Shown: piece by piece, positions 2,663-41,097 of the stretch
Layout: each line of letters starts with the position of its first letter
Numbering within the stretch: the stretch's first letter is position 1
NCBI RefSeq assembly: GCF_030013595.1
Contig: NZ_CP122768.1
Strand: one strand, 5' to 3'
Source of the DNA: Escherichia coli
Lineage (GTDB): Bacteria; Pseudomonadota; Gammaproteobacteria; Enterobacterales; Enterobacteriaceae
DNA length: 64,000 bases
Notes under the pieces: generated by a model
What the model saw: only the letters and a program-made list of their open reading frames with translations
What the model was told of the DNA's origin: nothing
The model's database searches: none
Made by a program: the position numbers and the translations under genes

Positions 2663-3177
2663 GTTCTCCCCGTATTCTGGCCTGTGTGATGCCAGTGTAA
2701 ATTCATGTCAAAAAGTGTCAGCGAGAAAATTTACACCTGAAAAAGTCTGTCATGAAACAGTTTTATGACAAGACATCAAAAAAATGTCAAAAACGTGATC
2801 TTTCTTCAGCTTTTCAGAATATTGAGTACCAGGAAGTCAATATCAATTCTGGGACACATATGCATTTACCATTAAAACCGGGCACAACAAGCTGTTCAGT
2901 CTCAATCCATACCCCGTGTTTTATCAATATCAGAATAAGAATATCTGCGGATAAATAAAAAAGGAATGTCGAGGGAGCTTACCGCAGAGGGCTCTCCACC
3001 TCACAAACCATTTACAAAAATGATACCGGCATATCTTTGGTCCCTGTCACAACCAGACATTGACAATCCAATATAACCCCAAATATATTTCGGGTAAGAA
3101 GTCTGGGATTTATACAGATATACTGTCTGTTATTACTATTTAATTATATAATTGTATTGCATACATAAGAGGCACTA

Positions 3178-3567
3178 ATGAAACGTTATATAAAATGGTT
3201 TGCCATCACAATTTTTATCAGTATGTTGAGTGCCTGTGCCCGTACGGCCCCAGTGCAACAGATAAGCACCACTGTCAGTGTGGGTCATACTCAGGAGCAG
3301 GTTAAAAATGCCATTTTGAAAGCAGGTGCGCAGCGCAAGTGGATTATGACGCAAGTGTCCCCTGGAGTTATTAAAGCTCGCTATCAAACACGAAATCACG
3401 TTGCAGAGGTTCGTATTACATATACAGCTACCTACTATAACATCAAATATGACAGTAGCCTGAATCTGCAGGCTTCTGATGGAAAAATTCATAAAAACTA
3501 TAACCGCTGGGTGCGTAACCTAGATAAAGATATACAGGTTAACTTATCTACAGGAGCAACGTTATAG
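3178..3567 (+). CDS. Small predicted lipoprotein, first gene of the lipid-biosynthesis cluster region
   Basis: 129-aa ORF with signal peptide and lipobox (ISMLSAC); lies in visibly AT-rich DNA immediately upstream of the cluster methyltransferase. Confidence 0.6.
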   Translation: MKRYIKWFAITIFISMLSACARTAPVQQISTTVSVGHTQEQVKNAILKAGAQRKWIMTQVSPGVIKARYQTRNHVAEVRITYTATYYNIKYDSSLNLQASDGKIHKNYNRWVRNLDKDIQVNLSTGATL

Positions 3568-3631
3568 TGATGCTGATATCGGGCTGGAATGGCCCGATAG
3601 TATTTAACTTTCTCTATAAGAATGGTTATAT

Positions 3632-4690
3632 ATGTACGAACAGGACACGCTCAGCGCACTGGATGCCATCACCGAAGCACAGCGGATTGCCTTTGCTCCT
3701 ATGCTTTTCCAGGCAGCTTTGTGCCTGCGCAATGCAGGAATATTAGATTATTTGGATCAACAGGGTAAACAGGGAGCTCCCCTTAATGCGATTACTGAGC
3801 ACACAGTCCTGAATGAATATGCCGTGGGTGTGTTACTGGATATGGGCTTAAGCGGGCGAATTATTACCTGTAAAGAGGGAATTTATTACCTGGCGAAAAT
3901 CGGTCATTACCTCCTGCATGACACTATGACTCGCGTGAATATGGATTTCACCCAGGATGTCTGTTACCAGGGGCTCTTCTTCCTTGCCGATTCACTCAAT
4001 GAAGGAAAACCTTCCGGGTTAAAAGTATTTGGCGACTGGCCGACGATATATCCGGCACTTTCGCAATTACCAGACGCCGCACGTGATAGCTGGTTTGCGT
4101 TTGATCATTACTATTCAGATGGCGCATTTAACGCCGCACTGCCTTATGTATTCGCCAACAACCCCACAACCTTGTACGATGTGGGTGGCAATACGGGTAA
4201 GTGGGCTTTGCGCTGCTGCAAATTCAATGAAAACATCGCCGTTACGTTATTAGATCTGCCACAACAAATCGTACTGGCGAAAGAAAATATCGCGAATGCA
4301 GGTTTTTCTGATCGCATAGATTTCCATGCGGTGGATATGCTAAGCGATGCCCCATTACCAGGCGAGGCTGATATCTGGTGGATGAGCCAATTTTTAGACT
4401 GTTTTTCACCCGAACAAATAATTAGCATACTCAGCAAAATTGCCAGCGTAATGAAGCCTGGCGCAAAACTTTGCATCATGGAGTTGTTCTGGGATGCACA
4501 GCGGTTTGAAGCGACATCGTTTAGCCTGAATGCATCCTCACTTTATTTTACCTGCATGGCAAACGGTAACAGCCGTTTCTATAGTGCAGAGAAATTTTAC
4601 GACTATCTGAATAAAGCAGGATTCCAGGTAGCAGAGTGTCACGATAATTTAGGCGTTGGGCATACACTTTTGATATGCCAAAAGAAATAA
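3632..4690 (+). CDS. SAM-dependent methyltransferase (APE-cluster methyltransferase-like)
   Basis: 352-aa ORF with SAM-binding motif LYDVGGNTGKWA; position matches the methyltransferase of aryl-polyene clusters. Confidence 0.75.
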   Translation: MYEQDTLSALDAITEAQRIAFAPMLFQAALCLRNAGILDYLDQQGKQGAPLNAITEHTVLNEYAVGVLLDMGLSGRIITCKEGIYYLAKIGHYLLHDTMTRVNMDFTQDVCYQGLFFLADSLNEGKPSGLKVFGDWPTIYPALSQLPDAARDSWFAFDHYYSDGAFNAALPYVFANNPTTLYDVGGNTGKWALRCCKFNENIAVTLLDLPQQIVLAKENIANAGFSDRIDFHAVDMLSDAPLPGEADIWWMSQFLDCFSPEQIISILSKIASVMKPGAKLCIMELFWDAQRFEATSFSLNASSLYFTCMANGNSRFYSAEKFYDYLNKAGFQVAECHDNLGVGHTLLICQKK

Positions 4691-4730
4691 TCGTCACTTA
4701 ATAATTTTGGTTTACCGCGGGCGCGCGTTG

Positions 4731-5453
4731 ATGAAATTTGCATTAAATATTACCAACTGGCAGGCACTGGCGCCTGGACTTAGCGATGTGCAGCAATGGC
4801 AAGCATGGTCGCGCCAGCCGTGGGCGATTGACCCTGCCGCGCCGTTGGCAAAATTAAGTGAACTGCCAATGATGACCGCTCGTCGTCTCAGTTCAGGCAG
4901 CAAACTGGCTGTTGAATGCGGTCTGACAATGCTACGCCGCCATCAGCCAGACGCTGTTTTGTATACCAGTCGTCATGGCGAACTGGAGCGCAATTACCGC
5001 ATTGTTCATGCACTGGCAACCGAACAGGCGCTTTCTCCGACGGACTTCGCGCTTTCCGTACACAACTCTTCCGTGGGTAACCTGACCATTGTGGCCAAAC
5101 AGCCGATCGTTTCGTCATCGCTTTCGGCTGGTCGCGACAGTTTCCAGCAAGGTTTGTGTGAAGTGCTTAGCCTGCTACAAGCGGGATACCAGCGCGTGTT
5201 GATGGTCGATTTTGATGGCTTTCTACCTGAGTTTTATCACCCGCAACTGCCCGCAGAAATGCCTACCTGGCCGTACGCCGTCGCGCTGGTGATTGAAGCT
5301 GGCGATGACTGGCAATGTGAAACGCAGCCAGCCATTGCGGTAAATGAAACAACACTGCCGCAAAGCATCTTGTTTTTACAGCACTATTTACAAAATGCAG
5401 ATGCTTTTTCACTGCCTGGCGAGCGCGTGCAATGGCGCTGGAGCCGCAGATGA
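4731..5453 (+). CDS. Beta-ketoacyl-synthase-like protein (short KS-like, possible chain-length-factor partner)
   Basis: ORF track starts at TTG 4707; ATG at 4731 (MKFALNITNW) is more plausible. About 240 aa, shorter than a catalytic KS. Confidence 0.6.
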   Translation: MKFALNITNWQALAPGLSDVQQWQAWSRQPWAIDPAAPLAKLSELPMMTARRLSSGSKLAVECGLTMLRRHQPDAVLYTSRHGELERNYRIVHALATEQALSPTDFALSVHNSSVGNLTIVAKQPIVSSSLSAGRDSFQQGLCEVLSLLQAGYQRVLMVDFDGFLPEFYHPQLPAEMPTWPYAVALVIEAGDDWQCETQPAIAVNETTLPQSILFLQHYLQNADAFSLPGERVQWRWSRR

Positions 5454-6271
5454 GTAAGCTGATGTCGCGCCTGGGATGGGCATGGCGACTGGTCATGACC
5501 GGGTTATGTTTTGTCCTGTTTGGTCTCGGCGGCCTGCTGCTTTCAGTCGTGTGGTTTAACATATTGTTAGTTTTGGTGTGGGATACTTCCCGCCGCCGTC
5601 GTTTGGCACGTCGCAGCATTGCCGCCAGTTTTCGCCTGTTTTTAACTGTCGCGAAAGGGCTTGGCGTGCTGGATTATCGTATTGATGGCGCTGAAATTTT
5701 ACGTCAGGAACGCGGTTGCCTCGTCGTAGCCAATCATCCCACGCTGATCGATTACGTGCTGCTGGCATCAGTCATGCCAGAAACTGACTGCCTGGTGAAA
5801 AGCGCGCTGTTAAAAAATCCTTTTCTTGGCGGCGTCGTGCGAGCGGCAGATTATTTAATCAACAGCGAAGCAGAAACCCTGTTACCCCGCTGCCAACAGC
5901 GACTGGCACAGGGTGACACTATCCTGATTTTCCCCGAAGGCACACGAACGAAGCCCGGTGAAAAAATGACGTTACAGCGCGGTGCAGCGAATATTGCCGT
6001 GCGCTGCACCAGCGATTTACGCATCGTGACGATCGGCTGTAGCGAGCATCTGCTGGATAAACAAAGTAAGTGGTATGACGTCCCGCCTGCCAGGCCGTTT
6101 TTTACGGTTGAAGTCCGTGGGCGGGTAGAAATCAATAAATTTTACGATGCAACTTCACAAGAGCCGACGCTGGCTGCAAGACAGTTAAACCGGCATCTTT
6201 TGCTTCAATTACAGCAAGGTTGTTTACCTCTATCAGGAATAAATAATGCAAGCGCTTTATCTGGAAATTAA
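5450..6271 (+). CDS. Lysophospholipid/1-acyl-glycerol-3-phosphate acyltransferase family protein
   Basis: N-terminal membrane helix, acyltransferase motifs NHPTLIDYV (HX4D) and FPEGTR; ATG at 5450 overlaps the upstream stop (ATGA); the ORF track's alternative start is 5432. Confidence 0.8.
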   Translation: MSKLMSRLGWAWRLVMTGLCFVLFGLGGLLLSVVWFNILLVLVWDTSRRRRLARRSIAASFRLFLTVAKGLGVLDYRIDGAEILRQERGCLVVANHPTLIDYVLLASVMPETDCLVKSALLKNPFLGGVVRAADYLINSEAETLLPRCQQRLAQGDTILIFPEGTRTKPGEKMTLQRGAANIAVRCTSDLRIVTIGCSEHLLDKQSKWYDVPPARPFFTVEVRGRVEINKFYDATSQEPTLAARQLNRHLLLQLQQGCLPLSGINNASALSGN

Positions 6272-6503
6272 AAACCTCATCATCAGCACCCTCAATCTGG
6301 ACGACTTGACTCCTGATGATATTGATATCAATGCGCCACTGTTTGGCGACGGTTTAGGGCTGGACTCTATCGATGCACTGGAACTGGGACTGGCAGTAAA
6401 AAATGAGTACGGCATCGTGCTCTCTGCGGAAAGCGAAGAAATGCGTCAGCACTTTTTCTCCGTCGCCACTCTGGCCTCTTTCATTGCTGCGCAACGTGCC
6501 TGA
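6246..6503 (+). CDS. Acyl carrier protein (first of tandem pair)
   Basis: 85-aa acidic ORF with phosphopantetheine attachment motif GLDSID. Confidence 0.85.
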   Translation: MQALYLEIKNLIISTLNLDDLTPDDIDINAPLFGDGLGLDSIDALELGLAVKNEYGIVLSAESEEMRQHFFSVATLASFIAAQRA

Positions 6504-6514
6504 GGAAAACCATC

Positions 6515-6766
6515 ATGACAGACCAACAAACCATTTATCAGGAAGTCTCAGCCCTGCTGGTTAAGCTGTTTGAAATCGATCCGCAGGACATCAAACCTGA
6601 AGCGCGACTGTACGAAGATCTGGAACTGGACAGCATCGACGCCGTTGACATGATTGTGCACCTGCAAAAGAAAACCGGTAAGAAAATCAAGCCGGAAGAG
6701 TTTAAAGCAGTGCGTACAGTCCAGGATGTTGTCGAGGCTGTAGAACGCCTGCTACAAGAAGGCTAA
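6515..6766 (+). CDS. Acyl carrier protein (second of tandem pair)
   Basis: 83-aa acidic ORF with LELDSIDAV motif. Confidence 0.85.
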   Translation: MTDQQTIYQEVSALLVKLFEIDPQDIKPEARLYEDLELDSIDAVDMIVHLQKKTGKKIKPEEFKAVRTVQDVVEAVERLLQEG

Positions 6767-6767
6767 T

Positions 6768-7352
6768 TTGATGTCGGGCATTCGCTCGCTACCGATGATT
6801 AAGTTGCTGACCGGATTATTGCTGCTCGTCTGGCCTTTTTTAATCTGGCTAGGTTTGGTGCATAACAGCCTGCACTGGCTGTTGCCGCTGATGGCGCTGT
6901 TGCTTTTATTGCGCCTGCGCCAGCCCCGTCGCCAGACGGGGCCGCTCCAGGTCGTCACAAAAATCGTTGCTGTTGTGGGCATTGTATTGTGTGTCTCCAG
7001 TTTTCTGTTGAAAACGTACCAGTTACTGCTGTTTTACCCGGTAGTGGTTAACGCAGTCATGCTGGCGGTTTTTGGCGGTTCGCTGCGGTCGACAATGCCG
7101 ATAGTTGAGCGGCTGGCACGTTTGCAGGAGCCAGACCTCCCGGAAAAGGCCGTGCGATATACCCGCCGCGTAACGCAGGTCTGGTGCCTGTTTTTTATTT
7201 TCAATGGCAGTATTGCGTTATTTACCACCTTGTATGGCAACATGCCCTTGTGGACAGCCTGGAACGGTATCATTGCTTACCTTCTGATAGGTTTCCTGAC
7301 TGCAGGGGAATGGCTGATACGTCGTAAGATGATCAAACGGAAAACACCATGA
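6768..7352 (+). CDS. Small integral membrane protein of the cluster
   Basis: 194-aa ORF with several hydrophobic helices; no catalytic motif recognised. Confidence 0.6.
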   Translation: MMSGIRSLPMIKLLTGLLLLVWPFLIWLGLVHNSLHWLLPLMALLLLLRLRQPRRQTGPLQVVTKIVAVVGIVLCVSSFLLKTYQLLLFYPVVVNAVMLAVFGGSLRSTMPIVERLARLQEPDLPEKAVRYTRRVTQVWCLFFIFNGSIALFTTLYGNMPLWTAWNGIIAYLLIGFLTAGEWLIRRKMIKRKTP

Positions 7353-8707
7353 ATCAGACTCTCTCACTTTCACAGTGGTTGACAGCCTCTCGCCCTGTAA
7401 CAACTCCTGTTGCCTGGCTTGGGGAATATACCTGGACACTGGGGCATCTGCGGCATGATGTAGCGCTTTTGATCGACCATTTACGCGACCAGCCAGGCAA
7501 TCGCTGGGCACTTTGTTTTGAAAACAGCTATCTTTTTATTGTAGCGTTGTTGGCCACGCTACACTCAGGTAAAATCCCGGTAATCCCGGGCCATAATCGC
7601 GCCGCTTTGTTAAATGTACAACGCTCTTTGTTTGATTGCGTCCTGAGTGATAAAAGGCTGGGCTGGAACGGTCCACAGTTTGTTGTAAGCACATCTCACC
7701 AGATGACGACCAGCACGATAGCCTTTGATGATATTGCTTCTGACGCGTTTATTGAACTTTTCACATCGGGTTCAACCGGACAACCAAAACAAATTGCAAA
7801 ACCTGTTATCAGCCTTGATCAAGAAGCAAACATGCTGGCAACTCACTTTGCAGACCGACTACTGGGCTGTCGTTTTGTAGCATCCGTGATGCCTCAGCAC
7901 CTGTATGGGCTAACTTTCCGTATTTTTTTACCCATGGCACTTGGCCTGCCATTGCATGCCGCAATGCTCTGGTATTCTGAGCAACTTGCCGCATTAAGCC
8001 ATACCTACCGCTATGCCTTTGTCAGCAGCCCGGCGTTCCTTAAGCGACTCGACCTTCATCTGACGCCTCCCCCAGTGGAAATGATTCTCTCTGCCGGCGG
8101 TATGCTACCATGGCAGGATGTAGAGAAAACTTCCACCTGGCTGAATATATGGCCCGATGAAATCTATGGTAGTACCGAAACAGGTATTCTCGCATGGCGT
8201 TACCGTCAACAGGATAATATCCCCTGGTTTACTTTTTCTGATGTTCATCTTTCACAGGAAAGTGAGGGGGTTCGTGTCTTTTCGCCACTAATCCCTGCTG
8301 AAGGATTGGTGCTTGACGATATGTTGCAATTCAATGAAAACGGTCAGTTCCACCTGATCGGACGACGTGGTCGAGTGGTAAAAATAGAGGAGAAGCGGAT
8401 ATCACTGGTTGAAATCGAACAACGACTTCTGGCACTTGACGGTATTATGGATGTCGCTGCAATACCATTAATACGCAATGGCCGCCAGGCTATCGGTGTC
8501 GTGGTTGTACCAAATAAAGAGGCCCGTCAAATATGGCAATGCTCCGGAGGGAAAACTCTGGAGTTGTCCTGGCGCAAAGCACTATTACCATGGCTTGAAC
8601 CTGTTGCAGTACCTCGTTACTGGCGCATTATTGATGAAATACCAGTAAACAGTATGAACAAGCGTGTCTATGCGCAATTACAGGAGTTATTTCATGATAC
8701 GCCATGA
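7349..8707 (+). CDS. AMP-dependent synthetase/ligase (adenylating enzyme, probable starter-acid:ACP ligase)
   Basis: 452-aa ORF with AMP-binding motif TSGSTGQPKQ; ATGA overlap with upstream gene. Confidence 0.8.
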   Translation: MNQTLSLSQWLTASRPVTTPVAWLGEYTWTLGHLRHDVALLIDHLRDQPGNRWALCFENSYLFIVALLATLHSGKIPVIPGHNRAALLNVQRSLFDCVLSDKRLGWNGPQFVVSTSHQMTTSTIAFDDIASDAFIELFTSGSTGQPKQIAKPVISLDQEANMLATHFADRLLGCRFVASVMPQHLYGLTFRIFLPMALGLPLHAAMLWYSEQLAALSHTYRYAFVSSPAFLKRLDLHLTPPPVEMILSAGGMLPWQDVEKTSTWLNIWPDEIYGSTETGILAWRYRQQDNIPWFTFSDVHLSQESEGVRVFSPLIPAEGLVLDDMLQFNENGQFHLIGRRGRVVKIEEKRISLVEIEQRLLALDGIMDVAAIPLIRNGRQAIGVVVVPNKEARQIWQCSGGKTLELSWRKALLPWLEPVAVPRYWRIIDEIPVNSMNKRVYAQLQELFHDTP

Positions 8708-9047
8708 AATTGAGCGCCATCTGGTTCAACCGCAGGAGATGGAAATCGTTCTATACCTTGACCCGATGCTCTACTGGTTTAATGGTCATTTTGCCGTACA
8801 GCCTCTGTTACCAGGCGTGGCCCAGTTGGACTGGGTAATGCATTATGCTACCACGCTGCTTGCTCCGGGCTGGCGTTTTCGTAGTATCCAGAATGTTAAA
8901 TTTCTGGCGCCACTTATACCTGAGACGACTGTTACCCTGCAATTAACATGGCAGGAAACAAGTCAGGTACTCACTTTCTGCTATCAGCGTCACGACGGTG
9001 ACGCCCGCCACACCGCCAGTAGCGGGAAGATCCGTCTATGTCGGTAA
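8664..9047 (+). CDS. Hot-dog fold dehydratase/thioesterase-like protein
   Basis: About 120-aa ORF in the position of the small dehydratase of APE clusters; start may be the ATG at 8694. Confidence 0.55.
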   Translation: MSMRNYRSYFMIRHEIERHLVQPQEMEIVLYLDPMLYWFNGHFAVQPLLPGVAQLDWVMHYATTLLAPGWRFRSIQNVKFLAPLIPETTVTLQLTWQETSQVLTFCYQRHDGDARHTASSGKIRLCR

Positions 9048-10714
9048 ACTTTTCTCCCTGCGTGTTGATCCCCTGCTACAACCACGGCGCGATGATGCCG
9101 GGCGTGCTGGCGCGTCTTAAGCCATTTAATCTGCCCTGTATTGTGGTGGATGACGGCAGCGATGCCGCCACGCAACAGCAACTGGATAATCTGGTTAGCG
9201 AACAGCCTGGCGTGACCTTAATTCGCCTGGCAGAAAACGCAGGTAAAGGCGCAGCGGTGATGCGTGGCTTGCAGGCAGCGGCAGACGCAGGGTTCAGCCA
9301 TGCGGTGCAGGTGGATGCTGACGGTCAACATGCGATTGAAGATATCCCCAAACTGCTGGCACTCGCTGAACAACACCCTGTGGCGCTGATCTCCGGTCAG
9401 CCAATTTACGATGACTCCATTCCCCGCTCACGGCTGTACGGGCGCTGGGTCACCCACGTCTGGGTATGGATCGAAACGCTCTCCCTGCAACTGAAAGACA
9501 GCATGTGCGGTTTTCGCGTTTATCCGGTTGCGCCGACGCTGCAACTGGCAAAACGCGCCACCATCGGCAAGCGGATGGATTTCGACACCGAAGTGATGGT
9601 GCGCCTCTACTGGCAGGGAAATACCAGCTATTTCGTGCCGACCCGCGTCACCTATCCACTGGACGGGCTTTCGCATTTTGATGCCCTGAAAGATAACGTC
9701 CGCATCTCGCTCATGCACACGCGTCTGTTTTTCGGCATGTTGCCGCGTATTCCTTCACTGCTGATGTGCCACTCTTCCAGCCACTGGGCGCGGCAGAGTG
9801 AAGTTAAAGGGTTATGGGGAATGCGCCTGATGCTGCTGGTCTGGCGTCTGCTGGGAAGAACGGCGTTTACCGCGCTGCTTTACCCGGTGGTTGGCGTCTA
9901 CTGGCTCACCGCTGCTCGTGCGCGTAAAGCGTCGCAAGACTGGCTCGCCCGTGTGCGCCAACAACAACCACAGGCAGCAAAAATCAACAGCTATCAGCAC
10001 TTTCTACGTTTCGGCAACGCCATGCTCGACAAAATCGCCAGCTGGCGCGGCGAGCTGCAACTCGGGCGTGATGTGCTGTTTGCGCCAGGCGCAGAAGCGG
10101 CGCTTGACGTCCGCGATCCGCGCGGCAAATTGCTGCTGGCCTCACATCTTGGCGATGTGGAAGTGTGCCGGGCGCTGGCAAAAATTGAGGGCTACAAAAC
10201 CATTAACGCGCTGGTGTTTAGCGAAAACGCCCAACGCTTTAAACAGATAATGCAGGAGATGGCTCCCCAGGCAGGCATTAACCTGATGCCGGTAACAGAT
10301 ATCGGCCCGGAAACCGCCATCCTGCTGAAAGAGAAGCTGGATAACGGCGAATGGGTGGCGATTGTCGGTGACCGCATCGCCGTCACCCCGCAACGCGGCG
10401 GCGACTGGCGCGTCTGCTGGAGTCCGTTTATGGGCCAGCCTGCGCCCTTCCCACAGGGGCCGTTTATTCTCGCCTCTATTTTGCGCTGCCCGGTGAATCT
10501 GATTTTCGCCCTACGCCAGCACGGCAAGCTGCATATTCACTGCGAAACCTTTGCCGACCCGCTGCTGTTGCCGCGTGGCGAACGCCAACAGGCGCTGCAA
10601 AACGCTATCGACCACTACGCCGCGCGTCTGGAACATTACGCGCTCCAGTCGCCCCTCGACTGGTTTAATTTTTTCGATTTCTGGCAACTGCCGGAAATTC
10701 AGGACAAGGAGTAA
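9038..10714 (+). CDS. Fusion protein: family-2 glycosyltransferase N-terminal domain plus lipid-A-type (LpxL/HtrB-like) acyltransferase C-terminal domain
   Basis: N-terminus CVLIPCYNH...VVDDGSDAAT...VQVDADGQH (GT2 DxD-type motifs); C-terminal about 330 aa with membrane anchor and acyltransferase-like region. Confidence 0.7.
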   Translation: MSVNFSPCVLIPCYNHGAMMPGVLARLKPFNLPCIVVDDGSDAATQQQLDNLVSEQPGVTLIRLAENAGKGAAVMRGLQAAADAGFSHAVQVDADGQHAIEDIPKLLALAEQHPVALISGQPIYDDSIPRSRLYGRWVTHVWVWIETLSLQLKDSMCGFRVYPVAPTLQLAKRATIGKRMDFDTEVMVRLYWQGNTSYFVPTRVTYPLDGLSHFDALKDNVRISLMHTRLFFGMLPRIPSLLMCHSSSHWARQSEVKGLWGMRLMLLVWRLLGRTAFTALLYPVVGVYWLTAARARKASQDWLARVRQQQPQAAKINSYQHFLRFGNAMLDKIASWRGELQLGRDVLFAPGAEAALDVRDPRGKLLLASHLGDVEVCRALAKIEGYKTINALVFSENAQRFKQIMQEMAPQAGINLMPVTDIGPETAILLKEKLDNGEWVAIVGDRIAVTPQRGGDWRVCWSPFMGQPAPFPQGPFILASILRCPVNLIFALRQHGKLHIHCETFADPLLLPRGERQQALQNAIDHYAARLEHYALQSPLDWFNFFDFWQLPEIQDKE

Positions 10715-10717
10715 AGG

Positions 10718-11140
10718 GTGCTTAACGATCCCCGATTTACCGCTGAAGTCGAGCTGACCATTCCCTTTCACGACGTCGATATGATGGGCGTGGCCTGGCA
10801 CGGTAACTATTTTCGCTACTTTGAAGTGGCCCGCGAGGCGCTGCTCAACCAGTTCAATTACGGCTATCGGCAGATGAAAGAGTCCGGTTATTTGTGGCCA
10901 GTGGTCGATGCGCGGGTGAAATATCGCCACGCCCTCACCTTTGAGCAACGCATCCGCGTGCGTGCGCATATCGAAGAGTTCGAAAACCGTCTGCGGATTG
11001 GCTATCAGATTTTCGATGCCGAAACGGGCAAACGCGCCACCACCGGATACACCATTCAGGTCGCAGTCGACGAGCAAAGCCGCGAACTGTGCTTTGTCAG
11101 CCCCGATATTCTGTTTGAACGCATGGGAGTCAAACCATGA
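10718..11140 (+). CDS. 4HBT-type acyl-CoA/ACP thioesterase (hot-dog fold)
   Basis: 140-aa ORF with GTG start; resembles YbgC/4-hydroxybenzoyl-CoA thioesterase family. Confidence 0.7.
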   Translation: MLNDPRFTAEVELTIPFHDVDMMGVAWHGNYFRYFEVAREALLNQFNYGYRQMKESGYLWPVVDARVKYRHALTFEQRIRVRAHIEEFENRLRIGYQIFDAETGKRATTGYTIQVAVDEQSRELCFVSPDILFERMGVKP

Positions 11141-11742
11141 AATTTTTACCGCTGCTGGCGCTGCTGATTAGCCCGTTTGTGAGCGCCCTGACCCGGGACG
11201 ATCTTCAGCAACGCTTTACCGAACAACCGGTGATCCGCGCCCATTTCGATCAAACCCGGACGATTAAAGATCTGCCGCAGCCGCTGCGATCTCAGGGTCA
11301 GATGTTGATCGCCCGCGACCAGGGGTTATTGTGGGATCAAACCTCACCGTTCCCCATGCAACTATTACTGGACGATAAACGCATGGTGCAGGTGATCAAC
11401 GGTCAGCCGCCGCAAATCATCACGGCAGAAAACAACCCACAGATGTTCCAGTTTAACCACCTGCTGCGCGCGCTGTTCCAGGCCGATCGCAAAGTGCTGG
11501 AACAAAACTTCCGCGTCGAATTTGCCGACAAAGGCGAAGGCCGCTGGACGCTGCGCCTGACGCCGACCACCACGCCGCTGGACAAAATTTTCAACACCAT
11601 CGATCTCGCCGGGCAAACCTATCTGGAGAGCATTCAGCTTAATGATAAACAGGGCGATCGCACCGATATCGCTCTTACCCAACATCAACTGACACCAGCG
11701 CAACTGACCGATGACGAACGCCAACGCTTTGCCACCCAGTAA
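11137..11742 (+). CDS. LolA-like outer-membrane lipoprotein carrier protein
   Basis: 201-aa ORF with signal peptide; LolA-like by recall of family features and position beside the MMPL exporter. Confidence 0.65.
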   Translation: MKFLPLLALLISPFVSALTRDDLQQRFTEQPVIRAHFDQTRTIKDLPQPLRSQGQMLIARDQGLLWDQTSPFPMQLLLDDKRMVQVINGQPPQIITAENNPQMFQFNHLLRALFQADRKVLEQNFRVEFADKGEGRWTLRLTPTTTPLDKIFNTIDLAGQTYLESIQLNDKQGDRTDIALTQHQLTPAQLTDDERQRFATQ

Positions 11743-14029
11743 ACGCCCCGCGCTGTTATGGGGGCTAGTCTGCCTGGTCATGGCGGCGGCGTTGCTGATC
11801 CTGCTGCCACAATCACGACTGAACAGTAGCGTGCTGGCTATGTTACCCAAACAGGCGATGGGCGATATTCCTCCGGCGCTGAATGACGGCTTTATGCAGC
11901 GTCTGGACCGCCAACTGGTGTGGCTGGTCAGCCCCGGTAAAGAGGCTAATCCCAGGGTGGCTCAGGAGTGGCTGACGCTGCTGCAAAAATCCGCTGCGCT
12001 CGGCGACATTAAAGGGCCAATGGATGCCGCCAGCCAGCAGGCGTGGGGAGCGTTTTTCTGGCAGCACCGCAACGGCCTGATTGACCCCGACACCCGCGCC
12101 CGCCTGCAAAATGGCGGCGAAGCGCAGGCGAAGTGGATCCTCTCCCAGCTTTATTCTGCGTTCTCCGGGGTAAGCGGCAAGGAGCTGCAAAACGATCCGC
12201 TGATGTTAATGCGCGGCTCGCAGCTGGCGATGGCGAAAAATGGCCAGCGTTTACGACTAATGGACGGCTGGCTGGTGACGCAGGATCCCCAGGGCAATTA
12301 CTGGTATCTGCTGCACGGCGAACTGGCGGGATCGTCGTTTGATATGCAGCAAACCCACCAGCTCATCACGACCCTGAATACGCTGGAAAAGGCTCTGAAA
12401 ACGCGTTACCCGCAGGCGCAGTTGCTCTCACGCGGCACGGTGTTTTACAGCGATTACGCCAGCCAACAGGCGAAGCAGGATATCTCCACCCTGGGCGTGG
12501 CAACGCTGCTGGGGGTGATATTGCTGATTGTGGCGGTGTTCCGCTCTTTGCGCCCGTTGCTGCTTTGCGTGATTTCCATCGGCATCGGCGCGCTGGCGGG
12601 AACGGCCGCCACATTGTTGATTTTCGGTGAATTACACCTGATGACGCTGGTGATGAGCATGAGCGTTATCGGCATTTCCGCTGACTACACGCTCTATTAT
12701 CTCACCGAGCGGATGGTGCACGGCAACGACGTTTCGCCGTGGCAAAGCCTGGCGAAAGTACGCAATGCCCTGCTGCTGGCGCTGCTCACAACCGTGGCGG
12801 CATATCTGATTATGATGCTCGCCCCCTTCCCCGGCATTCGCCAGATGGCGATTTTTGCCGCCGTCGGGTTGAGCGCCTCTTGTCTGACCGTCCTGTTCTG
12901 GCATCCGTGGCTGTGCCGTGGTCTGCCGGTGCGCCCGGTTCCGGCGATGGCGCTGATGCTACGCTGGCTGGCAGCGTGGCGGCGCAATAAAAAACTGTCG
13001 CGGGGTCTGCCCGTTGCGCTGGCGCTGTTTTCGCTGGCGGGGATGTCAATGCTGCGCGTCGATGACGATATCTCGCAGTTACAGGCGCTGCCGCAGCACA
13101 TTCTGGCGCAGGAGAAAGCCATTACCGCCCTGACCGGACAAAGCGTCGATCAAAAATGGTTTGTAGTTTACGGCGACTCCCCACAGCAAACATTGCGGCG
13201 ACTGGAGAAATATACCGCCTCACTTGAGTATGCGAAAAAAGAGGGGCTTATCAGCAACTACCGCACTATTCCGCTGAACTCCCTGGCGCGGCAGGAGGAA
13301 GACTTAGACCTGCTGAAAACGGCTGCCCCGACGGTAACAAAAGCACTGCAAAATGCAGGGCTGACGGCGGTGAAACCAGATCTCAACGCCATGCCGGTGA
13401 AGGTCGATGAATGGCTGGCAAGCCCCGCCAGTGAAGGCTGGCGTCTGCTGTGGCTGACGCTGGAAAACGGCGAAAGCGGTGTACTGGTGCCGGTTGAAGG
13501 GGTTAAAAGTAGCGCATTGTTGCAGGAAATCGCCAGCTATTACCCTTGCGGCATTGCCTGGGTTGATCGCAAAAGCTCCTTTGATGAATTGTTCGCACTT
13601 TACCGCTACGTCTTAACCGGCTTGTTGCTGGTGGCGCTGGCAGTGATTGCCTGCGGCGCAGTGGCCCGTCTCGGCTGGCGCAAAGGGCTTATCAGCCTGG
13701 TGCCTTCGGTGCTTTCGCTGGGCTGTGGTCTGGCGGTGCTGGCGATGAGCGGGCAGGCGGTGAATCTCTTTTCGCTGCTGGCGCTGGTGCTGGTGCTTGG
13801 CATCGGTATCAACTACACGCTGTTTTTCAGTAATCCGCGCGGTACACCGTTAACTTCGCTACTGGCGATCGCGCTGGCAATGCTCACCACCTTGCTGACG
13901 CTGGGAATGCTGGTATTCAGCGCCACCCAGGCCATCAGCAGTTTTGGCATTGTGCTGGTGAGCGGTATTTTCACCGCCTTCCTGCTTTCGCCGCTGGCTA
14001 TGCCCGATAAAAAGAGAACAAAAAAATGA
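11711..14029 (+). CDS. MMPL/RND-superfamily membrane exporter
   Basis: About 770-aa ORF with two blocks of transmembrane helices separated by soluble domains; exact start codon uncertain. Confidence 0.8.
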   Translation: MTNANALPPSKRPALLWGLVCLVMAAALLILLPQSRLNSSVLAMLPKQAMGDIPPALNDGFMQRLDRQLVWLVSPGKEANPRVAQEWLTLLQKSAALGDIKGPMDAASQQAWGAFFWQHRNGLIDPDTRARLQNGGEAQAKWILSQLYSAFSGVSGKELQNDPLMLMRGSQLAMAKNGQRLRLMDGWLVTQDPQGNYWYLLHGELAGSSFDMQQTHQLITTLNTLEKALKTRYPQAQLLSRGTVFYSDYASQQAKQDISTLGVATLLGVILLIVAVFRSLRPLLLCVISIGIGALAGTAATLLIFGELHLMTLVMSMSVIGISADYTLYYLTERMVHGNDVSPWQSLAKVRNALLLALLTTVAAYLIMMLAPFPGIRQMAIFAAVGLSASCLTVLFWHPWLCRGLPVRPVPAMALMLRWLAAWRRNKKLSRGLPVALALFSLAGMSMLRVDDDISQLQALPQHILAQEKAITALTGQSVDQKWFVVYGDSPQQTLRRLEKYTASLEYAKKEGLISNYRTIPLNSLARQEEDLDLLKTAAPTVTKALQNAGLTAVKPDLNAMPVKVDEWLASPASEGWRLLWLTLENGESGVLVPVEGVKSSALLQEIASYYPCGIAWVDRKSSFDELFALYRYVLTGLLLVALAVIACGAVARLGWRKGLISLVPSVLSLGCGLAVLAMSGQAVNLFSLLALVLVLGIGINYTLFFSNPRGTPLTSLLAIALAMLTTLLTLGMLVFSATQAISSFGIVLVSGIFTAFLLSPLAMPDKKRTKK

Positions 14030-14610
14030 TCAAATCCACATTCTGGCGAGCGTTCGCCCTGACCGCTACGCTTATCCTCACCGGCTGTAGCCACTCGCAA
14101 CCAGAACAGGAAGGCCGCCCGCAGGCGTGGCTGCAACCTGGCACGCGCATCACGCTGCCGGCACCAGGGATTTCACCCGCAGTCAATTCGCAGCAACTGT
14201 TGACCGGCAGCTTCAACGGCAAAACCCAGTCGCTGTTAGTGATGCTTAACGCCGACGATCAGAAAATCACCCTTGCCGGGCTGTCGTCGGTCGGCATTCG
14301 CCTGTTTCTGGTGACCTACGATGCGCAAGGGCTACGCGCCGAGCAATCCATCGTCGTCCCACAGTTACCGCCCGCAAGTCAGGTACTGGCTGACGTGATG
14401 CTCAGCCACTGGCCGATTAGCGCCTGGGAGGCGCAACTTCCCGCAGGATGGACACTTCGCGACAACGGTGACAAACGCGAGCTGCGTAACGCCAGCGGCA
14501 AACTGGTCACGGAAATCACCTATCTGAATCGCCAGGGAAAACGCGTGCCAATCAGAATTGAGCAGCATGTCTTTAAATACCACATCACCATTCAATACTT
14601 AGGTGAATGA
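14026..14610 (+). CDS. Lipoprotein of unknown function
   Basis: 194-aa ORF with lipobox LTGC; ATGA overlap with upstream exporter gene. Confidence 0.65.
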   Translation: MIKSTFWRAFALTATLILTGCSHSQPEQEGRPQAWLQPGTRITLPAPGISPAVNSQQLLTGSFNGKTQSLLVMLNADDQKITLAGLSSVGIRLFLVTYDAQGLRAEQSIVVPQLPPASQVLADVMLSHWPISAWEAQLPAGWTLRDNGDKRELRNASGKLVTEITYLNRQGKRVPIRIEQHVFKYHITIQYLGE

Positions 14611-14611
14611 T

Positions 14612-15781
14612 ATGATTTATATTTCCGCCGTCGGCATGATCAACGCCCTGGGAAATAACCTTGACGAAATCGCAGCCAACCTGGCTCGCGGTGTCGCCCC
14701 CGGCATGCGCCCACGCGCAGGCTGGTTGCAGGGGCATCCGCAGGCGGTCCTGGCTGGCGTGGATGGCGAGCTTCCGCTTATCCCGGAAAAATTCGCTGCG
14801 CATCGCTCGCGCAACAATCAGATCCTGCTGGCGGCGCTGGCGCAGCTCCAGCCGCAGGTTGATGACGCTATCGCGAAATATGGCTGCGAGCGCATCGCGA
14901 TTGTGCTTGGCACCAGCACCTCCGGCCTGCATGAAGGCGACACGCACGTTAACCTGCACACCCACGGGCAGCCGAGCACCACGTGGCACTATGCACAACA
15001 AGAACTCGGCGATCCGTCGCGTTTTCTCAGCCACTGGCTGGCGCTCGACGGCCCGGCTTATACCCTTTCAACCGCCTGCTCCTCCAGTGCCAGAGCAATG
15101 ATCAGCGGGCGCAGGCTTATCGAAGCGGGGCTGGTCGATGCCGCCATTGTGGGTGGCGCAGACACCCTGAGCCGAATGCCGATTAACGGTTTTCACAGCC
15201 TCGAATCGCTCTCGCCAACCTTATGTCAGCCGTTTAGTCGTGACCGCGCAGGTATCACCATTGGTGAAGGGGCGGGGCTAATGCTGCTGACCCGGGAACC
15301 GCAGCCCATCGCGTTGCTGGGCGTTGGTGAATCGAGCGACGCTTACCATATTTCAGCCCCGCATCCGCAGGGCGAAGGAGCGATCCGCGCTATTAATCAG
15401 GCGCTGACCGATGCGCAGCTTACGCCGGATGACGTCGGCTATATCAACCTGCACGGCACCGCCACACAGCTCAACGACCAGATTGAATCAATGGTGGTTA
15501 ACGCCCTGTTTGGCGAACGCGTACCGTGCAGCTCCACCAAACATTTGACCGGACACACGCTCGGCGCGGCTGGCATTACCGAGGCGGCAATTAGTATGTT
15601 GATTTTACAGCGTGATTTACCGCTGCCCGCTCAGGACTTCAGCCTGTCGCCGCGCGATCCCACGCTGCCACCGTGTGGCATTATCGAAAAACCGCAGCCG
15701 CTGGCACGTCCGGTGATCCTGTCCAATTCCTTCGCCTTTGGCGGCAATAACGCCAGCATTCTGCTCGGGAGGGTTTCGTGA
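14612..15781 (+). CDS. Beta-ketoacyl-ACP synthase (FabF/FabB-like KS)
   Basis: About 390-aa ORF with KS catalytic-region motifs (active-site Cys context STACSS, HGTAT, GHTLGAAG); ATG at 14612 preceded by AGGTGA. Confidence 0.85.
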   Translation: MIYISAVGMINALGNNLDEIAANLARGVAPGMRPRAGWLQGHPQAVLAGVDGELPLIPEKFAAHRSRNNQILLAALAQLQPQVDDAIAKYGCERIAIVLGTSTSGLHEGDTHVNLHTHGQPSTTWHYAQQELGDPSRFLSHWLALDGPAYTLSTACSSSARAMISGRRLIEAGLVDAAIVGGADTLSRMPINGFHSLESLSPTLCQPFSRDRAGITIGEGAGLMLLTREPQPIALLGVGESSDAYHISAPHPQGEGAIRAINQALTDAQLTPDDVGYINLHGTATQLNDQIESMVVNALFGERVPCSSTKHLTGHTLGAAGITEAAISMLILQRDLPLPAQDFSLSPRDPTLPPCGIIEKPQPLARPVILSNSFAFGGNNASILLGRVS

Positions 15782-16242
15782 GCCACTATTTATCCCCCGG
15801 CGCTTATCTGCCCCACGACGCGCCCATGTTACTGCTGGAAGACGTGGTGAGCGTCAGCGATGACAGCGCGGTGTGCCGCGTGACGGTTTCGCCCAGTGGC
15901 GTACTGGCACCGTTTCTCGACCCGGACGGCAATCTCCCTGGCTGGTTTGCCCTTGAACTGATGGCGCAAACCGTCGGCGTCTGGTCTGGCTGGCATCGCC
16001 ACCAGCAGGGCAAAAACAGTATTGAGTTAGGGATGATACTGGGCGCGCGTGAATTGCTTTGCACCACTGGCATTCTGCCCGCAGGCCAGACGCTGACCAT
16101 TACCGTCAAACTGCTGATGCAGGACGATCGCTTCGGCAGCTTTGAGTGCAGCATCAACGACGGCGAGGCGACGGGCCGCATTAACACCTTCCAGCCGACC
16201 GCGGAAGAACTTACCACCCTGTTTCAACAAGGAGCGTCCTGA
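15778..16242 (+). CDS. FabA/FabZ-like 3-hydroxyacyl-ACP dehydratase (hot-dog fold)
   Basis: 154-aa ORF, GTG start overlapping upstream stop. Confidence 0.7.
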   Translation: MSHYLSPGAYLPHDAPMLLLEDVVSVSDDSAVCRVTVSPSGVLAPFLDPDGNLPGWFALELMAQTVGVWSGWHRHQQGKNSIELGMILGARELLCTTGILPAGQTLTITVKLLMQDDRFGSFECSINDGEATGRINTFQPTAEELTTLFQQGAS

Positions 16243-16973
16243 TGAGTCGTTCAGTTCTGGTTACTGGTGCCAGCAAAGGCATTGGTCGCGCCATCGCCTG
16301 CAAGCTTGCGGCAGACGGCTTTAACATTGGCGTTCACTATCACCGTGACGCCACAGGCGCTCAGGAAACGCTGAATGCCATTGTCGCCAACGGGGGTAAC
16401 GGGCGTTTGCTCAGTTTCGACGTCGCAAACCGCGAACAGTGTCGGGAAGTGCTGGAGCATGAGATCGCGCAACACGGTGCCTGGTACGGCGTGGTCAGTA
16501 ACGCCGGGATCGCCCGCGATGCCGCTTTTCCGGCTTTAAGCGATGACGACTGGGATGCGGTGATCCACACCAACCTCGACAGTTTCTACAACGTCATTCA
16601 GCCGTGCATTATGCCAATGATCGGCGCGCGCCAGGGTGGGCGCATCATCACGCTGTCCTCGGTTTCCGGCGTAATGGGCAATCGCGGCCAGGTGAATTAC
16701 AGCGCAGCCAAAGCCGGAATTATCGGCGCAACAAAAGCACTGGCTATCGAACTCGCAAAGCGCAAAATCACCGTCAATTGCATCGCGCCAGGGCTTATTG
16801 ATACCGGGATGATCGAAATGGAAGAAAGCGCTCTGAAAGAGGCAATGTCGATGATCCCCATGAAACGTATGGGCCAGGCGGAAGAAGTTGCCGGGCTTGC
16901 CAGTTATTTAATGTCTGATATTGCGGGTTACGTCACCCGCCAGGTTATTTCCATCAACGGAGGGATGTTATGA
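16242..16973 (+). CDS. 3-oxoacyl-ACP reductase (FabG-like short-chain dehydrogenase)
   Basis: 243-aa ORF with NAD(P)-binding TGASKGIGRA and SDR catalytic YSAAK motif. Confidence 0.9.
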   Translation: MSRSVLVTGASKGIGRAIACKLAADGFNIGVHYHRDATGAQETLNAIVANGGNGRLLSFDVANREQCREVLEHEIAQHGAWYGVVSNAGIARDAAFPALSDDDWDAVIHTNLDSFYNVIQPCIMPMIGARQGGRIITLSSVSGVMGNRGQVNYSAAKAGIIGATKALAIELAKRKITVNCIAPGLIDTGMIEMEESALKEAMSMIPMKRMGQAEEVAGLASYLMSDIAGYVTRQVISINGGML

Positions 16974-18199
16974 CACGTCGCGTAGTGATTACAGGAATGG
17001 GCGGCGTGACTGCCTTTGGTGAAAACTGGCAGGACGTTTCTGCACGCTTACTGGCGTATGAAAATGCGGTGCGCAAAATGCCGGAGTGGCAGGTCTACGA
17101 TGGGCTGCACACCCTGCTTGGCGCGCCTGTTGATGATTTCACGCTACCGGAGCACTACACCCGCAAGCGTATCCGTGCGATGGGCCGCGTGTCGCAAATG
17201 TCGACCCGTGCCAGCGAGCTGGCGTTAGAGCAGGCAGGGTTGATTGGCGATCCGATATTAACCAGCGGCGAAACGGGCATTGCGTACGGTTCATCGACCG
17301 GCAGTACCGGTCCGGTGAGCGAATTTGCCACCATGCTGACTGAAAAGCACACGAACAACATCACTGGCACCACCTATGTGCAGATGATGCCGCACACCAC
17401 CGCTGTTAATACTGGCCTCTTTTTCGGCCTGCGCGGGCGGGTGATCCCAACCTCCAGCGCCTGTACCTCCGGCAGCCAGGCGATCGGTTATGCGTGGGAA
17501 GCCATTCGCCACGGTTATCAAACGGTGATGGTTGCCGGTGGTGCCGAAGAGTTATGCCCTTCAGAAGCAGCAGTGTTTGATACCCTTTTTGCCACCAGCC
17601 AGCACAATGATGCGCCGAAAACCACACCTTCACCGTTCGATGAAAACCGCGACGGACTGGTGATTGGTGAAGGCGCAGGTACGCTCATTCTCGAAGAACT
17701 GGAGCATGCCAAAGCGCGCGGCGCGACCATTTACGGTGAAATCGTCGGCTTTGCGACGAACTGCGACGCGGCACATATTACCCAGCCGCAGCGCGAAACC
17801 ATGCAGTATTGTATGGAGCAATCGCTGAAAATCGCAGGGTTAAGCGCACAAGATATCGGCTATATTTCAGCGCATGGTACGGCGACCGATCGCGGTGATA
17901 TGGCAGAAAGTCTGGCGACAGCAACCATTTACGGTGATAATGTGCCGCTCTCCTCGCTGAAAAGTTATTTTGGTCATACGCTTGGTGCCTGTGGCGCGCT
18001 CGAAGCCTGGATGAGTCTGCAAATGATGCGCGAAGGTTGGTTTGCGCCTACGCTAAACCTGAATAAACCAGACCCGAATTGTGGCGCGCTGGATTACATC
18101 ATGCATGAAGCCCGCAGGGTTGATTGTGAGTTTTTGCAGAGTAACAACTTTGCCTTTGGCGGCATTAATACATCCATCATTATTAAGCGCTGGCCCTGA
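16970..18199 (+). CDS. Beta-ketoacyl-ACP synthase (FabB/FabF-like KS)
   Basis: 409-aa ORF with KS motifs (SSACTSG, HGTAT, GHTLGACG); ATGA overlap with reductase gene. Confidence 0.9.
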   Translation: MTRRVVITGMGGVTAFGENWQDVSARLLAYENAVRKMPEWQVYDGLHTLLGAPVDDFTLPEHYTRKRIRAMGRVSQMSTRASELALEQAGLIGDPILTSGETGIAYGSSTGSTGPVSEFATMLTEKHTNNITGTTYVQMMPHTTAVNTGLFFGLRGRVIPTSSACTSGSQAIGYAWEAIRHGYQTVMVAGGAEELCPSEAAVFDTLFATSQHNDAPKTTPSPFDENRDGLVIGEGAGTLILEELEHAKARGATIYGEIVGFATNCDAAHITQPQRETMQYCMEQSLKIAGLSAQDIGYISAHGTATDRGDMAESLATATIYGDNVPLSSLKSYFGHTLGACGALEAWMSLQMMREGWFAPTLNLNKPDPNCGALDYIMHEARRVDCEFLQSNNFAFGGINTSIIIKRWP

Positions 18200-19038: not shown

Positions 19039-20070
19039 TCATGTACTCTGACGTAATTCTATCTGGTAGTTGAATTGCACGATACGCGACTCTTCTGATT
19101 CATCATGATTATTATTCAATAGTCCAATCAGTAACTTACCTGTCTCTATCCCCATTTTTTTGTAGTCAATACGGATGGATGTCAAAGTTGGGTGTGTTTG
19201 ATCGCAATTGTCTGAACCGTCAAGACAAGCTACAGCGATATTTCCAGGGATTTTTAACAAACGCCGCTGGCACTCAAACATTATACCCAGCGCAATCTCT
19301 TCGTGGCTGCAAATCACAGCATCCAGCTCTGGTTGTCGCAGTAATATCTCGTTTAATGCGTAACGCCCCAATTGCAGACTTGCGGCATCCGGCATGGTGA
19401 TAACAAGATCAGTGTTCTGGTAATGGCTCAGCATTGCTTTATGCCAGCCGTTCAGTTGCTGACGTTGCAGGCGGTTGTCCATATGCGCACCGATAAATCC
19501 GATATTCTTATAACCCTGCTCCAGCAGATGTTCGGTCAGTTTATGTGATGCTTCAAAAAATGCTGTTTCGATGGTAATTTGAGCCGGACTGAAAGGGGAA
19601 CCGATAACGTTAATGGTAGGTATATTTGTTTTCTCGAGTATCTGGTGAGTTTTATCAGCCAACTGAGAACCAAAAATAACTAACGCCGCCGGGTTGCCTT
19701 GAAGAAGCGTCATCAGAATTTCAGCTTCTTTGAGCTGATTATACTCATGACACCCAAGCAGTAGCTGGAATTCATTTTTATTAAGCACCTGCTGTAATGA
19801 CTGCATAAAGCGGGAGCTGGCTTTATCTGTCAGGGAAGGAACCAGTACGGCGACTGTATGACTGTGACCAGATGCAAGGGCGCCAGCAGTTCTGTTGGGA
19901 ATATAACCCAACTCTTCTACGGCCTGTTCTATCTTTTCCCTCAGCTTGTCAGAAACCTGTTCCGGTGTTCTCAGCGCGCGGGAAACGGTCATAGTTCCGA
20001 CACCTGCAAAGTTAGCGACCTCCTGCAGCGTCACCCGTCCGGTACCACGGCGCTTACGTGTTTTTTCCAT
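19039..20070 (-). CDS. LacI/GalR-family transcriptional regulator
   Basis: 343-aa ORF with N-terminal HTH (VTLQEVANFAGVGTMTVSRAL) and periplasmic-binding-protein-like sugar-binding domain. Confidence 0.9.
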   Translation of the reverse strand: MEKTRKRRGTGRVTLQEVANFAGVGTMTVSRALRTPEQVSDKLREKIEQAVEELGYIPNRTAGALASGHSHTVAVLVPSLTDKASSRFMQSLQQVLNKNEFQLLLGCHEYNQLKEAEILMTLLQGNPAALVIFGSQLADKTHQILEKTNIPTINVIGSPFSPAQITIETAFFEASHKLTEHLLEQGYKNIGFIGAHMDNRLQRQQLNGWHKAMLSHYQNTDLVITMPDAASLQLGRYALNEILLRQPELDAVICSHEEIALGIMFECQRRLLKIPGNIAVACLDGSDNCDQTHPTLTSIRIDYKKMGIETGKLLIGLLNNNHDESEESRIVQFNYQIELRQST

Positions 20071-20215
20071 TTCGACTCCATGGATAATTACAACCAGCTG
20101 TTTTCATTACTTTTATTTCACCATTACTCTTTCCAGTTTTTGCCCACGGTAGCAAATATCCTGTTGCATTGTATATGCAGGAACCGAATATAGCCAAAGC
20201 ATGGCGGCAGAGAAA

Positions 20216-20263
20216 TGATAGCGCTATCACAAAGATTGGTAGCGTTATCAGATAGCGCTATCA
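20216..20263. promoter_or_regulatory. Two copies of a 14-bp palindrome (TGATAGCGCTATCA and AGATAGCGCTATCA), candidate LacI-family operators
   Basis: Perfect and near-perfect palindromes at 20216-20229 and 20250-20263, in the divergent intergenic region between the regulator and the PTS operon. Confidence 0.55.
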
Positions 20264-20340
20264 AATGCGACAATCATCACATTAATTAATGCGTAAAATA
20301 TCTACTCTCCTGTTAATTATCATCGGGAGTTATCAGTAGC

Positions 20341-20784: not shown

Positions 20785-20799
20785 TCCAGAGGAACATTT

Positions 20800-21087: not shown

Positions 21088-21099
21088 GCTGGGGGCGAT

Positions 21100-29727: not shown

Positions 29728-29806
29728 TTAAAAGTATTTTCCGAGGCTCCTCCTTTCATTTTGTCCCATGTGTTGGGAGGGGCCTTTTTTACCTGGAGAT
29801 ATGACT

Positions 29807-41020: not shown

Positions 41021-41029
41021 ATGCACTTT

Positions 41030-41065: not shown

Positions 41066-41097
41066 AATAACAAATACAGAGTTACAGGCTGGAAGCT

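Follow-up and report, generated by a model that had tools for sequence, protein, structure and literature searches.

The two tandem acyl carrier protein (ACP) genes in the window, which is the whole 64-kb stretch of Escherichia coli DNA that was analysed, are, on sequence evidence and for practical purposes with certainty, apeE and apeF of the E. coli aryl polyene (APE) type II polyketide-like cluster. Their identity is settled because the products match the solved structures of ApeE and ApeF over the full length and the genes are identical to those of strain CFT073. The gene pair, the cluster, the knockout phenotypes, the activating enzyme and structures of close orthologs have all been published, and the system is thus already known; the sole departure of the window from the published system is an accessory island other than that of CFT073. 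The present analysis establishes the gene identity and shows the serines to be intact, and it documents the motifs specific to each type, the conservation and the surrounding cluster. Loading specificity, knockout phenotypes and activation by AcpT are taken from the literature.

The carrier genes within the ape cluster

The ape cluster is complete, with 18 genes (apeA-apeR) on one strand at 3178-18199 of the window (15,022 bases). Family-specific models recovered the entire core set: the ketosynthases (KS) apeO and apeR, the chain-length factor (CLF) apeC, the ACPs, the dehydratases (DH) apeI and apeP, the ketoreductase (KR) apeQ, as well as apeH and apeM. The genes are arranged as follows.

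3178..3567, plus strand: apeA, small hypothetical protein or lipoprotein, first gene of the cluster
3632..4690, plus strand: apeB, SAM-dependent O-methyltransferase (PF00891, FlxJ family)
4731..5453, plus strand: apeC, ketosynthase chain-length factor (PF13723, 1.2e-66)
5450..6271, plus strand: apeD, lysophospholipid acyltransferase (PF01553)
6246..6503, plus strand: apeE, 85-aa ApeE-type acyl carrier protein with S41 (NF006617, PDB 9ls6, CFT073 identity)
6515..6766, plus strand: apeF, 83-aa ApeF-type acyl carrier protein with S40 (NF003757, PDB 9l1v, CFT073 identity)
6771..7352, plus strand: apeG, membrane protein of the COG4648 family (no match in the Pfam or NCBIfam profile searches)
7349..8707, plus strand: apeH, adenylating enzyme, 4-hydroxybenzoate:ACP ligase (PF00501; role from PMC12624758 and PMC8253772)
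8694..9047, plus strand: apeI, dehydratase (PF22818 ApeI-like, 7e-36)
9038..10714, plus strand: apeJ, glycosyltransferase (GT2)/acyltransferase (PF00535)
10718..11140, plus strand: apeK, hotdog thioesterase (PF13279)
11137..14610, plus strand: the export genes apeL (LolA-like), apeM (MMPL/RND transporter, PF03176) and apeN (DUF3261)
14612..18199, plus strand: the core type II PKS enzymes apeO (KS), apeP (dehydratase), apeQ (ketoreductase FabG2) and apeR (KS), found with the models PF00109/PF02801, PF22817 ApeP-like, TIGR01831 and NF006587

The start of apeE is overlapped by 26 bases of apeD, and the spacer between apeE and apeF measures 11 bases, with a GAGGA sequence in it that overlaps the apeE stop codon. 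A promoter-like site matching at 11/12 positions lies at 3060-3089, upstream of apeA. Across the cluster, the promoter and terminator scan gave counts no higher than in shuffled sequence, and between apeD, apeE and apeF it returned no terminator-like and no strong promoter-like site. This arrangement fits a co-transcription of the three genes.

The earlier note had described two short acidic ACPs lying back to back and clearly diverged from each other, and the profile searches agree. Both open reading frames were found at exactly the coordinates given there, and RefSeq annotates the corresponding two coding sequences in strain P13-6, which is 100% identical to the window. The serine motifs read GDGLGLDSIDAL in the apeE product and LELDSIDAV in the apeF product. 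Both carriers exceed the 20.8-bit gathering score of the Pfam PP-binding family PF00550, ApeE with 32.3 bits (covering profile positions 3-52 only) and ApeF with 50.4 bits. Each also passes an NCBIfam model, ApeE scoring 89.5 bits on NF006617 'phosphopantetheine-binding protein' (cut-off 70) and ApeF 146.6 bits on NF003757 'acyl carrier protein' (cut-off 65). ApeE has a pI of 4.05 and a net charge of -10; for ApeF the values are 4.59 and -7. The two share 24 of 81 aligned residues (30%), with 10 gap positions. The tandem ACP pattern is not a product of chance.

Phosphopantetheine serines and structural relatives

The possibility that one member of the pair is a degenerate duplicate, no longer open to phosphopantetheinylation, had been raised in the earlier note, which would have taken a missing serine in a proper alignment as the sign of it. 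In a MAFFT alignment that also held the Acinetobacter baumannii ApeE and ApeF, S41 of ApeE, S40 of ApeF and Ser36 of AcpP share an invariant D-S column, and a D-S-I-D motif occupies the AcpP Ser36 position in both carriers. Among the best 150 of 2200 diverse ApeE-type representatives, DS[ILVM] is retained in 150/150. Because the serines of both carriers are present and aligned, the degenerate-duplicate idea is refuted and the pair stands.

Other evidence points the same way. ApeE passes its own NCBIfam model NF006617, its residues 4-84 match the solved holo-ApeE structure 9ls6, and deletion of apeE abolishes the pigment (PMC8253772). Furthermore, both homologues in O157:H7 are modified and activated by AcpT, according to the account of De Lay and Cronan (2006) given in PMC8253772. 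The sole hint in favour of a degenerate carrier is the weaker score of ApeE on the generic PP-binding model, and the probability left to this explanation is negligible.

No phosphopantetheinyl transferase (PPTase) is annotated in the 64-kb window, and the CFT073 ape cluster is likewise without one (PMC8253772). The gene acpT is present in 5425/5426 complete E. coli genomes, so the window strain almost certainly supplies AcpT in trans, as judged from gene content.

The structural relatives give each carrier a type of its own. The best PDB match of ApeE is 9ls6, an 86-aa acyl carrier protein (E 5.7e-25, residues 4-84), which bears the ApeE hallmarks described in PMC12624758. That of ApeF is 9l1v, an 82-aa acyl carrier protein (E 7.6e-19, residues 3-80); 9L1V is the A. 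baumannii ApeF of a study of 'tandem ACPs' (Lee et al. 2025, PMC12624758). A. baumannii resembles the window in gene order and in having both ACP types, with 59% identity between the ApeE proteins (9LS6) and 52% between the ApeF proteins.

The A. baumannii ApeE has been described as having a glycine-rich motif, two loop insertions (L-E-D and N-A-E) and G48, and as accommodating bulky aromatic intermediates in a surface pocket (PMC12624758). It shares with the window ApeE S41, the glycine-rich motif (GDGLGLDS in the window), an insertion in the α1-α2 loop, a lid insertion in the α2-α3 loop, and G48 in helix 2. The insertions differ in their letters: L-D-D and S-A-E in the window stand for L-E-D and N-A-E in A. 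baumannii, the window's S-A-E-S-E-E being the equivalent of the 'NAE lid'. The window ApeF is without the ApeE-type insertions. Its A. baumannii counterpart has a shallow cavity formed by V38, A43, F63, K64 and V66, with F63 on helix 3 (PMC12624758); S40, A43, F63, K64 and V66 are common to both proteins, whereas cavity residue 38 is L38 in the window.

AcpP is similar to the window carriers in size, acidity, membership of the PP-binding family and the Asp-Ser at the start of helix 2, but is only about 22-27% identical to them and has neither the glycine-rich motif nor either ApeE insertion. Acyl chains are housed in a deep cavity in AcpP, in a surface pocket in ApeE and in a shallow cavity in ApeF (PMC12624758).

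Genomic setting and conservation of the pair

Over 25 kb the window matches strain P13-6 at 100% identity, and it matches ETEC H10407 and others at 99.9%. The aryl polyene cluster of CFT073, in the c1186-c1204 region (Cimermancic 2014; Johnston et al. 2021, PMC8253772), has been expressed and systematically deleted, and its two ACPs were named ApeE and ApeF (PMC8253772). The CFT073 apeE and apeF (C_RS05630, C_RS05625) show 0 nucleotide differences from the window, and their products have the accessions found also in P13-6, the twin of the window strain (WP_001148680.1 for ApeE, WP_000132059.1 for ApeF). The 15-kb CFT073 cluster is collinear with that of the window, 98.2% identical and gapless, and in both genomes apeA is flanked by truncated two-partner-secretion remnants. 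Fourteen of the 16 other cluster proteins have different RefSeq accessions, reflecting a few substitutions each. The island occupies different chromosomal sites: the fec operon and cadC flank it in the window, and its neighbours in CFT073 are pgaA/dgcT and an integrase. ARAGORN found no tRNA in the window, hence none at the island border.

The carriers of the Z4853/Z4854 type on O-island 138 of O157:H7 are orthologous apeE and apeF, in a cluster of the same architecture. They differ from the window at 3/85 amino acids in ApeE and 4/83 in ApeF, none of them near the serine. Identity falls to only about 90% in the 5' third of the cluster, and the alignment of apeH is poor. The O157:H7 locus reads yhhT-[ape]-acpT-nikA, the PPTase gene being the next one after the cluster, whereas the window island has no PPTase gene nearby. 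In strain AST85, as in O157:H7, this more diverged cluster copy has yhhT on one side and acpT on the other, the latter immediately following apeR.

The apeE-apeF pair (521 bases) occurs in 824/5426 complete E. coli genomes, in every case chromosomal and with both genes covered. Against the diverged alleles of O157:H7, AST85 and WP7, pS ranges from 0.05 to 0.29 and pN from 0.015 to 0.028, pN being lower than pS in both genes, and none of the allele differences falls near the serines. This pattern indicates purifying selection on apeE and apeF within E. coli, as estimated from these alleles.

Beyond the species, a word-indexed search placed relatives of ApeE in at least 7996 clusters, of which the best 120 were all from Enterobacterales. 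When representatives clustered at 50% identity were searched exhaustively, 2200 matched at E<=0.001 and 509 reached E<=1e-10. In Serratia silvae, an acyltransferase gene is followed by an ApeE-type ACP, a second ACP, a membrane protein and an adenylating enzyme, and two distant metagenomic clusters (L010 and L013) have the same gene order. The apeD-apeE-apeF order of the window recurs in CFT073, O157:H7, Serratia and both metagenomic clusters. Elsewhere in the gene-context sample, in which two contigs were too short for neighbours, a truncated ApeF-like gene follows ApeE at one contig end, one contig carries two ApeE-type ACPs in tandem, and a short 4.5-kb contig (L011) has an ApeE-type ACP alone, with no adjacent ApeF. 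Two metagenomic proteins are ApeE::ApeF fusions.

In a joint alignment, ApeE-type sequences had a mean identity of 49% among themselves and ApeF-type sequences one of 44%, against 26% from one type to the other; the split between ApeE and ApeF is therefore ancient. The ApeE insertions are strictly type-specific and were seen in 10 ApeE-type sequences of distant origin. Taken by their sequences, ApeE and ApeF appear as an ancient, separately maintained pair, not a recent duplication.

This bears on the suggestion that ApeF is a redundant spare that duplicates ApeE or AcpP and has no distinct role. A deletion of apeF leaves the cells partly pigmented, ApeF can be loaded in vitro with 4-hydroxybenzoate (4-HBA), if poorly, and some APE clusters do without a second ACP (PMC8253772; the short contig L011), all of which a spare would explain. 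However, the two types are each conserved at 44-49% over distant taxa with type-specific insertions while only about 26% identical to each other. Both genes are kept, under purifying selection, in 824/824 of the E. coli genomes that carry the pair, and the ApeE::ApeF fusions keep both domains. In addition, ApeH and FabD tell ApeE from ApeF (PMC12624758), and the mature product is absent in the apeF deletion mutant (PMC8253772). A redundant ApeF is accordingly regarded as improbable.

Proposed division of labour between ApeE and ApeF

The earlier note had proposed separate roles for the two carriers, for example one bearing the growing polyene chain and the other serving an acyl transfer or lipid-anchoring step. 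Published data support the separation. In CFT073, deletion of apeE leads to no APE or pigment, whereas deletion of apeF gives partial pigment, with yellow intermediates accumulating and the mature product not made (PMC8253772). In A. baumannii, NMR titrations showed that ApeH perturbs ApeE and not ApeF, and ApeF is bound by FabD in both ITC and NMR (PMC12624758). In substance the proposal is correct, and it agrees with hypotheses that appeared in the literature from 2019 to 2025. As for its examples, the polyene carrier corresponds to ApeE; the job of the second carrier is debated between a malonyl shuttle and a conjugated-fatty-acid carrier, both of which fall within what had been offered.

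The mechanism proposed here would begin with AcpT, encoded elsewhere in the genome, converting both apo-proteins to the holo form at S41 and S40. ApeH would then adenylate 4-hydroxybenzoate and load it directly on holo-ApeE. On this carrier the polyene would grow in cycles, with ApeR or ApeO:ApeC condensing, ApeQ reducing and ApeI/ApeP dehydrating, until the finished chain passes to the lipid-anchoring enzymes ApeD, ApeJ and ApeK. ApeF would most probably act as an auxiliary carrier, receiving malonyl from FabD and bringing extender units to the ketosynthases, and its absence could be partly made good by ApeE or AcpP. Taken as a whole, this account, with AcpT as activator, ApeE as chain carrier and ApeF as malonyl extender carrier, is judged to be probably correct, though by no means securely so. 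It presumes that the E. coli carriers act like their A. baumannii and Xenorhabdus orthologues.

The two halves of this account differ in strength. For ApeE the backing is good, coming from the genetics of the identical gene and from biochemical work on orthologues, and PMC8253772 concluded that the 4-hydroxybenzoate starter is carried preferentially by ApeE. The weaker half is the role assigned to ApeF. A malonyl shuttle, as put forward in PMC12624758 and PMC8253772, is the most likely one by analogy with A. baumannii, where FabD binding was found and the shallow cavity was seen to suit malonyl (PMC12624758). ApeF can be loaded with 4-HBA in vitro, but poorly (PMC8253772). The pigmented intermediates of the apeF deletion fit a dispensable extender carrier and equally a role outside chromophore synthesis.

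Such a role has been proposed in a preprint, in which the conjugated fatty acid (cFA) of the APE lipid is borne by ApeF and handed to ApeD (bioRxiv 10.1101/2020.12.19.423268). In this scheme, ApeF is not an extender shuttle: the cFA would be built on it by the same KS/KR/DH enzymes, ApeD would take the chain off ApeF and attach it at sn-2 of a lysophosphatidylglycerol, and ApeE would bear only the aryl polyene chromophore, attached later by ApeJ. The proposal was drawn from the structure of the APE lipid and from apeB-R deletions in Xenorhabdus doucetiae. It gains from the E. coli apeF deletion, which like the apeD and apeJ deletions is partly pigmented with pigmented intermediates (PMC8253772), and from the position of apeD directly upstream of the ACP pair, overlapping it, in the window and in distant clusters. 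Against it, FabD binds ApeF (PMC12624758), whose shallow cavity, obstructed by F63 (a residue kept in E. coli ApeF), argues against the carriage of a long chain. Moreover, the short contig L011 encodes an ApeD-like acyltransferase with a single ApeE-type ACP and no adjacent ApeF, and the preprint advances the scheme as a postulate. A cFA-carrying ApeF is thus considered a rather unlikely, if serious, alternative to the malonyl shuttle.

By extension, ApeF might be the scaffold on which the same enzyme set runs a second assembly line in parallel, with the choice of carrier setting both the product and the acyltransferase (ApeE with ApeJ, ApeF with ApeD). We give this idea a limited chance of being right. 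It was postulated in the 2020 preprint, and therefore, if true, would confirm a published hypothesis and not reveal a new kind of system.

Several observations were counted against the malonyl-shuttle account: the conjugated-fatty-acid preprint itself, the clusters without a second ACP, namely the APE-type xanthomonadin cluster (PMC8253772) and the short contig L011, and the presence of L38 in place of V38.

For annotation, the two proteins that RefSeq calls 'phosphopantetheine-binding protein' and 'acyl carrier protein' can safely be renamed ApeE and ApeF, and their genes apeE and apeF. The exact job of ApeF, whether malonyl shuttle or carrier of the lipid's cFA, matters for how this very widespread pigment-lipid pathway is organised, and also bears on plans to inhibit the pathway in pathogens.

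Genomic setting of the ape cluster in E. coli

In the window, the aryl polyene (ape) cluster is housed in a large accessory region spanning positions 1-46900. The order of features in this region, ending in core genes, is as follows.

Features of the accessory region, in order (window coordinates)
1-810: fecD/E
1354-2662, - strand: truncated remnants of a two-partner-secretion (TPS) system, ShlB and hemagglutinin
3178-18199, + strand: ape cluster
19039-22356: LacI and PTS IIA/IIB/IIC genes
29633-31538: IS2 interrupting a YagK/YfjJ gene
38440-41286 and 43952-44787: Ag43 and YeeU/CbtA, respectively, members of a CP4-like block that also has an antirestriction gene
46463-46622: integrase remnant
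beyond the integrase remnant: core genes cadCBA

An ARAGORN scan of the whole 64 kb gave no tRNA gene. About 90 bases upstream of apeA (positions 3060-3089) lies a sigma-70-like, near-consensus promoter match (TTGACA, an 18-base spacer and TATATT; 11/12 consensus positions); the total count of such matches across the region was not above that of shuffled sequence.

The chromosomal site of the cluster varies among E. coli strains. The CFT073 copy (L003 18728-33749) is also island-borne and is 98.2% identical to the window copy. The TPS remnants are common to both, but the CFT073 copy adjoins pgaA/dgcT and an integrase. A diverged copy is found in O157:H7 (L004 10941-26546) and AST85 (L006 10941-26543), in the arrangement yhhT-[ape]-acpT-nikA, with about 90-96% identity to the window cluster over the aligned parts only. 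Among the 824 carrier genomes, the identity of the tandem acyl carrier protein (ACP) pair is at least 99% in 231 and 90-99% in 594.

ACP arrangements and gene content in other ape-like loci

Loci with ApeE relatives showed other ACP arrangements. Two of them encode metagenomic proteins in which an ApeE-type ACP domain is naturally joined to one of the ApeF type: P0156 (174 aa; L009 30-554) and P0197 (182 aa; L015 558-1106), each carrying a separate DS motif in both domains. The fused gene of L015 is preceded by one for an ApeD-like acyltransferase. A tandem pair in L012 (1-619) departs from the ApeE-then-ApeF arrangement, as both members are ApeE-type ACPs with the loop insertions; a KS gene and a KS/CLF gene follow immediately. 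In L011 (2004-3898), on a 4.5-kb contig, a lone ApeE-type ACP gene comes after an ApeD-like acyltransferase gene and before those for an ApeI-like dehydratase and a thioesterase, and no gene of the ApeF type interrupts the series.

In L010, a distant ape-like cluster, the adenylating enzyme and the ApeI-like dehydratase form one fused 497-aa protein (5982-7475), while ApeJ is split, its GT2 and lipid A-type acyltransferase parts each having a gene of their own. The ape-like cluster of L014 contains an ACPS-family (PF01648) phosphopantetheinyl transferase gene (1701-2249, - strand), adjoining CLF, acyltransferase and ApeE-type ACP genes; such a gene is missing from the E. coli island copy.

Divergence of apeH between E. 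coli cluster lineages

In blastn comparisons with the O157:H7 and AST85 clusters, ∼1 kb within apeH (window 7596-8593) was entirely unaligned, while its flanks showed 88-96% identity. The encoded adenylating enzyme measures 452 aa in one of the two E. coli cluster lineages and 453 aa in the other. Judged from these nucleotide alignments, divergence between the two lineages appears to be greatest in the gene for this enzyme.
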